Positions 54,430 through 58,481 of a stretch of 64,000 nucleotides of DNA are shown piece by piece; within the stretch, counting starts at the first letter, position 1; the number at the start of each line of letters is the position of its first letter. Both the position numbers and the translations under genes were made by a program. The notes under the pieces were generated by a model that saw only the letters and a list, made by a program, of their open reading frames with translations, did not search any database and was not told where the DNA came from. The DNA comes from Spizellomyces punctatus DAOM BR117 (taxonomy: Eukaryota), in the NCBI GenBank assembly GCA_000182565.2, contig KQ257452.1, one strand, 5' to 3'.

Positions 54430-55161
54430 ATGCATTTACATTTCCCATTCCTCTTGTCGCTCCTAAGCATCCTCACACTAACGACCTCCCAAACCATAAA
54501 ACACATTTCCCAATCCGAACTCACCAAACTCGCCACCCAAGCCGACCAAAACATTACATTTATCCCCCACACGGTGTTCAAGCAGACGATATCCGATGGG
54601 ACCTGGTTGGTGTTTTTTGGGGCGAGGTGGTGCAAGTATTGTAAACAGTAGGTTTTCAATGTTTTGTTTGGTAGCTTTAGAATGGGAGTTGAAGTGTTGG
54701 GCGGTTTAGGTTGTCGCCGACTTGGTTGACGATTCAGGAGCGGGTGCTCGATGCGGTGCAGGGGATCAAGATGGGAAAAGTGGATTGCACGGATCAAGAA
54801 GGTAGGTTTTGGAAAGAGTGGATCTTTAAAGAAAAAGACAAGAGGGTTGATATCGATTTTCTTTAATACAGAGTTTTGTGAAGAGGAGGGTGTGGATGGG
54901 TATCCAACACTTCATCTGTACGTTATTTTTGCAATTATTTTGTTGGGTGTTGTAAATGATGGCTGATGACATGGCATAGATACAATAACGGTAAACTGAT
55001 TGAAGAATACGATCAAGGTCACGATCTAAAGAGTTTGTACACGTATGTTGTGACAAAGGTATGTTTTTTGTGTGTGTGGATTGTACTGGTGGTTCATGCG
55101 ATGGTAATTTGTTCATGTGTAGGCGAGTTATTATCAGAAATTGCGACGAGAGGATTTGTGA
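54430..55161 (+). CDS. ER-resident single-thioredoxin-domain PDI-family protein
   Basis: Signal peptide, WLVFFGARWCKYC (WCxxC), MGKVDCT, GVDGYPTL, last exon ending ...RREDL* (KDEL-like). Four introns. Confidence 0.85.
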
Positions 55162-55406
55162 TATGTGTGATTGCGTGGTGATGATGGCGATGATGGTGAT
55201 GAGTTTGTGAGAACGGCGTGGGATGAGAGGATGGGAGCGGGTACGAGTAGAATGGGAATGCGGGGAATGATGGTAGATGTGAGGTCCATGATGGGACATT
55301 AGAAAGGACAAGGACGTGTCGAATAATGTGTGCCATCGTTGCCTAGAGGCATTTGTCGAGATAGGGCATATAGAATGTGTATGGGATAAACAAGCCTGTC
55401 CAGAGA

Positions 55407-55497
55407 ATACAAGATGATGGATAGTGCGGACGCCGGTGGGTATTGGCACTAGCACCCGCACCAGGGATGAACCGCGCGACAACCGGCTCGGAAAACC
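55407..55497 (-). ncRNA. Predicted Fanzor omegaRNA: about 75-nt scaffold (55497-55422) + about 15-nt flank-derived guide (55421-55407)
   Basis: - strand GGUUUUCCGAGCCGGUUGUCGCGCGGUUCAUCCCUGGUGCGGGUGCUAGUGCCAAUACCCACCGGCGUCCGCACUA|UCCAUCAUCUUGUAU. It lies between the stop codon and the element end, with complementary segments GCCGGU/ACCGGC and UGGUGCGG/CCGCACUA. Exact ends are inferred from characterised Fanzor loci. Confidence 0.82.
55424..55455 (+). repeat. Right-end terminal inverted repeat (32 bp)
   Basis: Matches the left TIR with one inserted base and two substitutions. Confidence 0.92.
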
Positions 55498-55510
55498 TAA
55501 TCTAACCAAT

Positions 55511-57415
55511 CTAAGCTACGGCTGGAACACCCCTGCTGAACACTTCTGGTCTACCGTGTCCATCCAACATTGATTGCACGATCGTTAGCATATTGCAGGT
55601 GCTCAGCGTATCTCGATTCCAGTAGCGCATCGTCCAGGCTTGCTGCAAACAGTTAGGGTTGGTACAACCCAGCAATCCATGGACTTTTTCAATCTTGCCT
55701 TCTCGTCGTCGATAAGGTCTTGAATGAGGTCGTTCTTTGAATTTTTTCTCCACAAACTCAGATGAGGAACAGCGAGGGCAAACAGATGAGGTCTTGTACT
55801 CGTCGAGAAGGAAACAATCAATGCGGTTGCGCTTAAAGAGGGTGCGCCAGCCTTTTGTCTTTGATGAGGTCTGAAATCTTGCAGTTCGACCGGCGTCGCT
55901 CCAATCACCCATTACAACAGTAAGGTTTTCACCGTACTTGTTGCGCATGTTACTTATGAGGTCTGATTCGCTCTTCTGACGGTTTATGAAGGAGTGCCAT
56001 TTCCATCGAGTATGAGCAGGATGCGAATAGAAGTCCTTGCGGCGGTTCCAGTCGACACGACGGACGAGGAGGTAGCGGAGGAAATCCATGAGGTTCATCG
56101 TCTTGTGAGATGGTATTCGCGATTCTATAAGGTCCATTCCCGCTTCCTTCTTCATCCACTGCCGTTCCTTTTGCTGCCGACGGCTTCCAGTCTCCTTGCA
56201 GCGTTGATTGGCGGTGTAACGGAAGATGGTGCCCTTGTTGTCTTGGCAGTAGAGAACGTCGCGCTTGTTTGGGTCGATAACGACGACGTTCTCTGCTGCT
56301 CGACAAGCAGGCAAGTTTTTTTCCACATATACTGCCTTCACCTCAGCTGCTAGAGTCTTTGCCGACTTCTTCTTTCCTCCGCGCTTTCCGTACTTGTCGG
56401 CGTCAGGGTGTTTCAAATACACAGACACCGAGGTTCCGTCCGTCGTGATCGAGCCTTCAAACTGCATACCGCCGCCGCGGCGAGACCGAAAAGCCTTCGT
56501 GCGTAGATTGCAGACGCGCAACCACAGATCATCCTTTTCGACCGCTTCTGCCTCTCTGCGAAAAATGCAAAGAATGTGGGTGTAGAGAATGACGGTGTCA
56601 ATCCGGACATGGCTTTGAATGAGAGACCGGCGAAGAGGTATCGCGCTGAACCGTCGGAAGCCATGTCGTTCATACAGCCCAGAGAGTTTGCAGTACGCAG
56701 GAAAAAATGACATCGGATCAGCAACAATGGCGTAGGCAAGGGGATTGTCGGGAAGGAATGGGAGATCCAATGACCAGATCTCTTCTAGAAGTTCACTCTC
56801 TTCAGCAGTCAAATCATCGAGCGACTCAGGCACGATATCAAAAAGGAAAATTGACTTCAAGTAGCGAAGACGAGCAAAGAAAGCGTTTCGCGCATCGCTT
56901 TTCAGTGGTAGTCGCTGCTTCTGTCCCTTCAGATCAAGCCGCAGATTAATGTACCGGAGCAGCATCATCATGAAGTGTTCCTGGACATTGACCTTCAGAT
57001 TCGTCATCATACTCGCTGTCAGGTAATTGACTGATTGTTGCTCGCCTCGCAGGTTTGGATGAGAAAAATCAACGATGCGGCAGTACCGTCGAACATATGG
57101 CCACAAGCATTCACGTAACGCCTTCTTCGCATCAGTTTTTGGTTGCCACGATTCACCTTTGTTGAGAAGATAGAGGATGACTTCAATCGTCTCTTGATTT
57201 ACCGTGGGAAAAGCTGGTGCTGATGAAAGGAGATAGAATTTCAGTGCGTGGGAAGCATGGTTGGCGAGTTGATGGATGATGGCAATGTAATCTAGAAGCC
57301 GTTGGCGGGAGATCTCGTTTGGCAGGAAAGCTTTTGCAAAGGAAGTCTTGTTGCAGGTATGTAAGCAAGTAGGTTTGTCGAGTTTTTCGAGTTTTTGCTT
57401 TTTCTTTGGTGGCAT
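55511..57415 (-). CDS. Fanzor1: Fanzor1 RNA-guided endonuclease (eukaryotic TnpB/Cas12-like), 634 aa, intronless
   Basis: N-terminal NLS-like PPKKKQK; TDGTSVSV; RuvC-I VVVIDPN; RuvC-II LLDEYKTSSVC; zinc finger CPRC...CTNPNC; RuvC-III WNRD. Closely resembles, but is not identical to, SpuFz1 as I recall it. Confidence 0.95.
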   Translation of the reverse strand: MPPKKKQKLEKLDKPTCLHTCNKTSFAKAFLPNEISRQRLLDYIAIIHQLANHASHALKFYLLSSAPAFPTVNQETIEVILYLLNKGESWQPKTDAKKALRECLWPYVRRYCRIVDFSHPNLRGEQQSVNYLTASMMTNLKVNVQEHFMMMLLRYINLRLDLKGQKQRLPLKSDARNAFFARLRYLKSIFLFDIVPESLDDLTAEESELLEEIWSLDLPFLPDNPLAYAIVADPMSFFPAYCKLSGLYERHGFRRFSAIPLRRSLIQSHVRIDTVILYTHILCIFRREAEAVEKDDLWLRVCNLRTKAFRSRRGGGMQFEGSITTDGTSVSVYLKHPDADKYGKRGGKKKSAKTLAAEVKAVYVEKNLPACRAAENVVVIDPNKRDVLYCQDNKGTIFRYTANQRCKETGSRRQQKERQWMKKEAGMDLIESRIPSHKTMNLMDFLRYLLVRRVDWNRRKDFYSHPAHTRWKWHSFINRQKSESDLISNMRNKYGENLTVVMGDWSDAGRTARFQTSSKTKGWRTLFKRNRIDCFLLDEYKTSSVCPRCSSSEFVEKKFKERPHSRPYRRREGKIEKVHGLLGCTNPNCLQQAWTMRYWNRDTLSTCNMLTIVQSMLDGHGRPEVFSRGVPAVA

Positions 57416-57465
57416 GATGATATCTGTGGAAAAAGACGAAAGCCTGGGAAAATGGGCACGACAAC

Positions 57466-57472
57466 TTATATA
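57466..57472 (-). promoter_or_regulatory. Putative TATA box for the Fanzor gene
   Basis: CC-TATATAA-G on the - strand about 50 nt upstream of the ATG, inside the element. Confidence 0.5.
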
Positions 57473-57545
57473 GGACTTTTTGGATCAAACCAGAGTTCAT
57501 GAGTCTAAATCGAGTAAAATTATGATTAAATTGGTTGGAATCTTT

Positions 57546-57576
57546 GTACTAGTGCCAATACCCATCGGCTCCGCAC
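57546..57576 (-). repeat. Left-end terminal inverted repeat (31 bp), preceded on the - strand by 5'-CATA
   Basis: + strand GTACTAGTGCCAATACCCATCGGCTCCGCAC-TATG. Confidence 0.92.
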
Positions 57577-57703
57577 TATGTACCTTGTAAGATATCGGAC
57601 GCTGAGTCACACGCGACTGTCCACGCAGCTAAGCAACACGCTTCTGGCTGTGATTCCCGCTGTGATTCCCACTTCAACTATTGTCTGTTTGACATTTTGC
57701 AAA

Positions 57704-58481
57704 ATGGCCCGTCACTCGACTAGCGCAGTGCGCCCCAGCACATCCCGCCAACCAAGCACCCCACCACCTCCACCAACCCCACCATCACCAGCCCTCTTTT
57801 CTCCCACCCCAATCCTCCACGACCCATACGAAACAGACATTGAAGACCTCACGACAGCAGCACTCGAAAAAACAGACGCATTTTTCCGGGAATTCAAGCT
57901 TTTTGTATTGCAGAATCGGGTCTTGGAGACGGGTGTGGGTGTTATTGTTGGTCAGGCGTATGTATTTATAAGAGATTTGCCAGAACGAGAGCATTTTGCC
58001 AATTCGGTCCATCATTATATAGATTCCAAGATTTTGTGCGTAGTTTTGTCAACGATGTCATGGTACCCCCTCTTACACTCGTCACCGGCCACCGCCTCAT
58101 CAACATCTTTTTTGTTCTCCGCCGAGGCAAAACCGGCCGTCGTCCCAAAACGATTGAAGAAGCCGCGACCGATGGAGCCGTGACAGTCAACCTAGGCCGA
58201 TTCATTCATCAGACACTCAATTTTTTTACGGTTGGGATGGCGGTGTATTGGTTTTTGAGGGGGTTGAGATGGTATTTTCGGTTACGAGTTCAGTTGCCGG
58301 ATACGAAAAAGTGTCCGTTTTGTTTGCAGGATGTTGCCTTGTTGGCTTCTAGGTGCGTGCGATACTTTGTTTGCTGGATGATTCATGTCTTTTCATGTTT
58401 TGTTTATTTTTTTTAATTGATTCTAGGTGTTGCTTTTGTACTTCGATGCTCTCGGAATCTCATGCACCCCCAACTGAATAA
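57704..58481 (+). CDS. mscL: MscL-family large-conductance mechanosensitive channel with C-terminal zinc ribbon
   Basis: FFREFKLFVLQNRVLETGVGVIVGQA-FQDFVRSFVNDVMVPPL, VTVNLGRFIHQTLNFF, TKKCPFC...R-CCFCTS. Two introns. Confidence 0.85.

Follow-up and report, generated by a model that had tools for sequence, protein, structure and literature searches.

The omegaRNA of a catalogued SPu-1 copy in Spizellomyces punctatus very probably folds as two stems and a linker, not as a pseudoknot

At the right end of a Fanzor transposon in Spizellomyces punctatus DAOM BR117, a short stretch of minus-strand DNA raises a question of RNA architecture: what RNA does this transposon end specify, how does that RNA fold, and which of its base pairs sets the boundary between the scaffold and the guide? 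The locus lies in a stretch of 64,000 nucleotides that we analysed as a whole and refer to here as the window. The preliminary description of the locus had proposed an omegaRNA scaffold that overlaps the right terminal inverted repeat and folds into a pseudoknot. We therefore asked which element this is, how its RNA is laid out against the transposon ends, and whether the proposed helices are the ones that the RNA would adopt.

The element, its protein and its catalogue record

The element is a copy of the SPu-1 transposon that spans 55422-57578, a length of 2157 bp with both TAs counted. Its coding region and its ends are as follows.

55511-57415, minus strand: Fanzor1 open reading frame, intact, 634 aa, with an N-terminal PPKKKQK motif, RuvC motifs and a zinc ribbon
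55422-55455, no strand assigned: right terminal inverted repeat in our own alignment; 55422-55452 (31 nt) in Saito et al.
57546-57578, no strand assigned: left terminal inverted repeat in our own alignment; 57549-57578 (30 nt) in Saito et al.
57577-57580, minus strand: CATA at the left junction, made of the flank CA and the TA that starts the repeat; equal to the published SpuFz1 TAM

The protein belongs with structurally characterised Fanzors. Compared with PDB 8GKH chain P by phmmer, the Fanzor1 ORF gave E = 0 and 1240 bits over residues 2-634; the ORF matches SpuFz1 (8GKH) and six further PDB entries, and it matches Fanzor 1 of Parasitella parasitica at 8e-49. The ORF keeps the segments IDPNKRD, LLDEYKTSSVCPRC and YWNRD, where the published metal ligands D383, N385, E541 and D606 lie, and it also has a zinc ribbon of the form CPRC...C..C. 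A Pfam search with this ORF returned no family at E values up to 0.1.

The locus can be tied to a published record through its neighbor. ORFs that adjoin the left end of the element encode an MscL-like protein; of four peptides taken from it, three match a single record in Supplementary Data 1 of Saito et al. 2023 (PMC10432273). This record, "NW_015971539.87 Loci with Fz (reversed)", comes from supercont1.3 of S. punctatus DAOM BR117. Its features are the MscL gene SPPG_02142, a left "end" of 30 nt and a right "end" of 31 nt (in window coordinates, 57549-57578 and 55422-55452), a 1905-nt ORF equal in length to the Fanzor1 ORF of the window including its stop codon, and an "fz" feature that covers SpuFz1 residues 18-638. 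Saito et al. 2023 (PMC10432273) catalogued 42 Fanzor loci in S. punctatus. Since the record matches the layout of the locus, the element is one of these 42. The locus, the omegaRNA design, the flank-derived guide and the two-stem fold have been known for the SPu-1 family since 2023.

Several features of the surroundings bear on annotation. The MscL-like mechanosensitive channel gene SPPG_02142, which contains introns, lies within 57578-58416 on the plus strand. Its start lies ∼126 bp from the left end of the element, and thus the transposon sits in the upstream region of SPPG_02142. The RefSeq model SPPG_08989, a two-exon model contained in the NW_015971539.87 record, is antisense to the intact 634-aa Fanzor ORF. 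RefSeq consequently offers no translation of this copy's Fanzor protein, and SPPG_08989 is probably a mis-annotation. On the minus strand, an ORF at 54826-55509 passes through the omegaRNA; we rejected it as a gene, as it is an unsupported read-through of noncoding flank. Simple repeats of the GGTGATGATGG type flank the element at 55176-55201 and 57765-57790 and form a weak inverted pair (77% complementary). These probably represent low-complexity flank outside the element.

Scaffold, guide and transposon junctions

Scaffold nucleotides are numbered here on the minus strand, with nt 1 at 55496 and nt 75 at 55422. The parts of the RNA are the following.

55422-55496, minus strand: omegaRNA scaffold, 75 nt in the assembly; identical by eye to the ID16 omegaRNA except for two single-base indels
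55469-55489, minus strand: stem-loop 1 (nt 8-28), GAGCCG paired with CGGUUC, pairing probabilities 0.98-1.00
55464-55468, minus strand: linker (nt 29-33), 5 nt as against 6 nt (A29-C34) in the published RNA
55422-55463, minus strand: stem 2 (nt 34-75), 13 pairs, then 3 pairs, with an 8-nt loop
55407-55421, minus strand: predicted 15-nt guide, UCCAUCAUCUUGUAU, in host flank directly after A75

The omegaRNA starts ∼15 nt past the Fanzor1 stop codon. At the other end, the scaffold finishes in CCGCACTA and stops at 55422, where the annotated right repeat also ends, with the 15 nt of UCCAUCAUCUUGUAU beyond it. Stem 2 takes its 3′ strand from the outer half of the right repeat.

This arrangement can be read against a body of published data on sister copies. 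Small RNA-seq of S. punctatus detected 88-90-nt RNAs downstream of Fz at four loci, and omegaRNA was also recovered in pulled-down RNPs; the published omegaRNA consists of a conserved 75-nt scaffold that spans the right IR and a variable 14-15-nt extension (Saito et al. 2023, PMC10432273). In the 2.7 Å structure of SpuFz1, the scaffold is described as "two stems and a linker". Its first modelled bases are U5, C6 and C7; U16-G20 and G22 lie in stem-loop 1, A29-C34 form the linker, U35-A75 form stem 2 and the guide begins with U76; in the canonical omegaRNA the hairpin loop is 8 nt long (PMC10432273). According to the same source, stem-loop 1 is gripped by many RuvC and NUC residues, and the linker touches the RuvC domain, its phosphates and bases contacting R415, R419, K483 and N480. 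The segment C40-G70 is reported there to be flexible, poorly ordered and free of protein contact, and activity in human cells was kept when it was deleted (PMC10432273).

Much of the preliminary description agrees with these data. It had drawn the scaffold as running into the right inverted repeat and finishing at CCGCACUA, and indeed A75 at 55422 is the repeat end, as published for sister copies. It had read the following ∼15 nt of host flank as the guide, which corresponds to the published 14-15-nt variable extension with U76 as its first base. Its proposal that one piece of DNA doubles as transposon end and RNA scaffold is borne out by the position of the 3′ strand of stem 2 within the right repeat and has been published for the SPu-1 family. 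The 5′ end that it gave for the RNA was within 1 nt of 55496.

By eye, the scaffold of the window is identical to the omegaRNA of ID16, the SpuFz1 cryo-EM locus, except that one linker A is missing and an extra G is present at 55431. With these two indels allowed for, the residues named in the cryo-EM work (U5, C6, C7, U16-G20, G22, A29, C32, G70, A72, A75 and U76) have the same letters here. Because the two scaffolds differ by the two indels alone, all six helix arms named in the preliminary description are identical in the solved RNA. The linker region reads UCAUCCC in the window, UCAAUCCC in four of the five published S. punctatus omegaRNAs and UCAAUUCC in ID14. Thus, the extra linker A is carried by all five published RNAs and is absent here. 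Contigs of other copies (runs X2 and X12) also carry the extra linker base.

The second indel involves a disagreement between assembly and reads. The X1 contig for the locus, which has no other differing letters across the unique flank, lacks base 55431, and the right repeat is then 30 nt long, as in other copies. The extra G at 55431 may be an assembly error or a variant. Since the assembly and the X1 contig disagree at this base, the exact length of stem 2 is uncertain. A contig from one possibly-RNA run covers the flank at 55330-55405 only.

Searches for relatives of the RNA added little. Rfam gave no family for the omegaRNA, and its sole hit in 55300-57700 was a chance lncRNA match (E = 0.43). 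A metagenome search with the Fanzor protein produced 175 pattern matches, none of which was confirmed. Four metagenome loci (L001-L004) that share a 20-nt scaffold pattern were rejected as relatives, as their sequence is unrelated and the rest of the scaffold is absent. Three of them (L001-L003) are near-identical contigs with a 20-nt exact match to stem-loop 1; they are otherwise unrelated and coding-like, and we regard them as chance matches.

The transposon ends place the guide in the context of insertion. In our alignment, the left and right repeats match in 32 of 34 aligned columns, with two mismatches, plus one single-base gap. Both repeats begin with TAGTGCGG, TA stands at both ends of the element, and the end-to-end similarity of the two repeats ceases at 55422, save for one shared flanking base. 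When further repeat copies were sought within the 64-kb window, nothing beyond this element's own two ends turned up. At the left junction, CA is followed by TAGTGCGG. The published TAM of SpuFz1 is 5′-CATA, each base of which is required for cleavage, and a conserved CA is reported upstream of the left IR (Saito et al. 2023, PMC10432273). An empty site with a single TA would read CATA and then TCCATCATC..., which is exactly the TAM followed by the guide match. At such an unoccupied site, CA from the left flank, a single TA and TCCATC... from the right flank would together restore the CATA-guide target. The single-TA reconstruction, made from a single copy, fits a TA that is either duplicated or shared; in Bao and Jurka 2013 (PMC3627910), the TA duplications of SPu-1 are called putative. 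The occupied site differs at both junctions: at the right junction ACTA, not CATA, precedes the guide match, and at the left junction the repeat, not the guide match, follows CATA. Judged from these letters, the occupied insertion site would escape Fanzor cutting.

Fold of the scaffold and the proposed pseudoknot

The preliminary description had gone further and drawn three helices in the scaffold. Helix 1 joins GCCGGU (55487-55482, nt 10-15) to ACCGGC (55437-55432, nt 60-65) in 6 Watson-Crick pairs. Helix 2 joins GGGUG (55457-55453, nt 40-44) to UACCC (55442-55438, nt 55-59) in 5 pairs, one of them G.U. Helix 3 joins UGGUGCGG (55463-55456, nt 34-41) to the terminal CCGCACUA (55429-55422, nt 68-75) in 8 pairs, one of them G.U. 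The segments do lie at these positions and each pair of arms is complementary. However, helices 2 and 3 share nt 40-41, so both cannot form in full, and helix 3 is simply the base of stem 2: its pairs are the first 8 of 13 unbroken pairs (nt 34-46 with nt 63-75), which are followed by 3 more. Helix 1 crosses helix 3 on paper, as had been claimed, but the pseudoknot itself is absent from the predicted fold. Helix 1 competes with stem-loop 1 and with distal stem 2, and both of its arms contain the self-complementary CCGG. Within the right repeat (55422-55451), the terminal GCACUA (nt 70-75) could instead pair with UAGUGC (nt 46-51) in an alternative hairpin of 6 bp.

Energetically, the two-stem arrangement dominates. 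RNAfold gives the 75-nt scaffold a free energy of −30.7 kcal/mol as stem-loop 1, linker and stem 2, and the MFE and centroid structures are identical. This fold has a z score of −2.19, with 7 of 200 shuffled sequences at least as stable. Pairing probabilities in stem-loop 1 and stem 2 are 0.96-1.00, with 0.60 for the closing pair U34-A75, whereas helices 1 and 2 have a pairing probability of 0.0 in the ensemble. The best nested fold with helix 1 enforced reaches −21.5 kcal/mol, as against −30.7 kcal/mol unconstrained, and helix 1 is thus disfavoured by 9 kcal/mol or more. Taken alone, before any knot penalty is added, helix 1 contributes −8.0 kcal/mol and helix 3 −10.1 kcal/mol. A knot of helices 1 and 3 therefore cannot approach −30.7 kcal/mol. 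Attaching the guide to make a 90-nt RNA leaves the fold unchanged and the guide unpaired, and with base 55431 removed both stems are kept (−28.9 kcal/mol).

Short complementary segments are also common by chance in an RNA of this composition. In 2000 dinucleotide-preserving shuffles of the 75-nt scaffold, a Watson-Crick helix of at least 6 bp occurred in 690 (35%), and a helix of at least 8 bp with G.U allowed occurred in 1121 (56%). A run of 13 or more pairs occurred in 12 (0.6%). With a 13-pair run in 0.6% of the shuffles and a 6-bp helix in 35%, stem 2 is beyond chance expectation and helix 1 is not.

Natural variants, compared by eye across five published S. punctatus omegaRNAs and two Parasitella omegaRNAs, bear on the same point. 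In three of the five S. punctatus RNAs (IDs 19, 20 and 23), nt 10 is A; helix 1 then contains an A.C mismatch, and stem-loop 1 has A-U where a G.U pair stood. IDs 14 and 19 carry a C-to-U change that leaves stem-loop 1 paired as U.G, and stem-loop 1 is fully paired in all five. Among contigs of run X1, the A variant at 55487 accounts for 607 of 630 depth units. In both Parasitella omegaRNAs, the UUAUCG loop is retained together with its flanking UCC and AAU, and their 7-bp stems are entirely different yet complementary; between Parasitella ID58 and ID20, six of the seven stem pairs differ on both sides. By eye, neither Parasitella RNA contains a second downstream complement to the 5′ arm of stem-loop 1.

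How, then, should the locus be read? We are highly confident that 55496-55407 on the minus strand is the omegaRNA gene of a catalogued SPu-1 copy and that its RNA has the two-stem fold, without a pseudoknot. In this RNA, a short 5′ tail would be followed by stem-loop 1 (nt 8-28), the 5-nt linker and the long stem 2 (nt 34-75). Stem 2 would close with U34-A75, and the next 14-15 nt of host flank would serve as the guide. Fanzor1 would bind this RNA by stem-loop 1, the linker and the base of stem 2, and have the guide pair with DNA located 3′ of CATA. RNA ends, RNP binding, TAM, cleavage and three-dimensional structure have been shown on sister copies, and the identity of the sequences suggests that this copy would behave in the same way.

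The alternative drawn in the preliminary description, an H-type pseudoknot in which nt 10-15 pair with nt 60-65, GGGUG with UACCC and UGGUGCGG with the terminal CCGCACUA, and in which the crossing of the helices defines the guide boundary, now seems scarcely credible. It is true that the complementary arms are present, that helix 1 crosses helix 3, that a 6-bp and an 8-bp helix in such a crossing arrangement turned up in just 75 of the 2000 shuffles (3.8%), and that a pseudoknot is present in the omegaRNAs of bacterial TnpB (Saito et al. 2023, PMC10432273). Yet helices 1 and 2 are absent from the ensemble, enforcing helix 1 carries the energetic cost given above, helix 2 overlaps helix 3 by 2 nt, and a Watson-Crick helix as long as helix 1 is an everyday product of shuffling. 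The A.C mismatch in three of the five S. punctatus RNAs and the missing second complement in Parasitella count against helix 1. Finally, the RNA solved for the sister copy has the same sequence in each of the six arms and folds as two stems joined by a linker; the 5′ arm of helix 1 belongs to its protein-bound stem-loop 1, and the 3′ arm falls inside the deletable C40-G70. Unlike the RNAs of TnpB and Cas12, the SpuFz1 omegaRNA "lacks the pseudoknot" according to Saito et al. (PMC10432273), and the word "pseudoknot" is absent from the passages on Fanzor structures in Xu et al. 2024 (PMC11423790). Energetics, chance expectation, natural variants, C40-G70 trimming and the sister-copy structure all speak against the pseudoknot. 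Nor is the guide boundary marked by a knot: what fixes it is the pair that closes stem 2, at the base of helix 3.

Two further possibilities concern function more than fold. One is that the RNA is a true omegaRNA homologue but the copy is silent or crippled, a relic with a shorter linker, a stem 2 indel or no transcription. The linker is 5 nt here and 6 nt in all five characterised RNAs, and the published linker makes contacts with R415, R419, K483 and N480; because the linker touches the RuvC domain, the activity of this copy could be lower. Moreover, small RNA-seq found omegaRNA at just four loci (PMC10432273), and this locus is outside the five that Saito et al. assayed in yeast. Against a relic stand the intact ORF with its catalytic motifs, the intact repeats at both ends and a scaffold that, apart from the two indels, is letter for letter that of the active ID16, the extra G falling in distal stem 2, which proved dispensable in the published trimming. 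On balance, we consider an inactive copy unlikely. The other possibility is that the complementarity of helix 1 represents a transient alternative conformer that gates Fanzor assembly, or that the shorter linker is a natural variant with altered activity. We give this very little weight. If true, such a conformer in the unprocessed transcript or in protein-free RNA would delay or gate assembly with Fanzor.

Comparison with known systems

What was published in 2023 for the SPu-1 family already contains the essentials of this locus: a transposon end that is a guide-RNA scaffold, a guide that changes with every insertion and an RNA that folds into two stems with no pseudoknot. The locus is useful mainly as a calibration. 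Sequence alone gave the 5′ end within 1 nt, the boundary between scaffold and guide, and the guide length; short complementarities were over-read into a pseudoknot. For annotators, two points stand out, namely, that SPPG_08989 lies on the strand opposite to the Fanzor ORF, and that assembly and reads disagree by one base inside the right repeat.

The closest known system is the SpuFz1 omegaRNA (ID16, PDB 8GKH), which shares with this copy the family, the genome and a 75-nt scaffold that follows the stop codon and spans the right repeat. Stem-loop 1, the linker, stem 2 with its 8-nt loop, a guide that follows ...CACUA and a CATA left junction are shared as well. In contrast to ID16, the copy described here lacks one linker A, has an extra G in the distal 3′ strand of stem 2 and carries another guide. 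Its protein differs from SpuFz1 at many positions; identity among the paralogues is reported as ∼82% (Saito et al. 2023, PMC10432273).

A more distant parallel is the omegaRNA of ISDra2 TnpB, from the IS200/IS605 group (PDB 8H1J as cited in Saito et al.), which likewise is an RNA from the right end of the element with a flank-derived guide and a left-flank TAM. ISDra2 TnpB is a RuvC nuclease homologous to Fanzor1 (PMC10432273). As described by Saito et al. (PMC10432273), the TnpB RNA has a pseudoknot and overlaps the end of the tnpB ORF, whereas RNAs of the SpuFz1 type have no pseudoknot and start after the stop codon.

Within S. punctatus, the Ghost Spu-1 loci, 134 elements that encode no protein, have an omegaRNA laid out in the same way at the right end, with scaffolds that support SpuFz1 activity (PMC10432273). 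They have no Fanzor gene, their repeats differ at seven positions, and a 3-nt bulge in stem 2 replaces the 8-nt loop (PMC10432273). The copy described here, in contrast, has both a Fanzor gene and the canonical 8-nt loop. Finally, SPu-1 as introduced by Bao and Jurka 2013 (PMC3627910) measures ∼2.1 kb, encodes ∼633 aa in one ORF, and has TIRs of 33 bp and putative TA duplications. With its 2157 bp, its 634-aa ORF and its repeats of 33-34 bp, this copy shows no difference from that description, which predates the discovery of the RNA.
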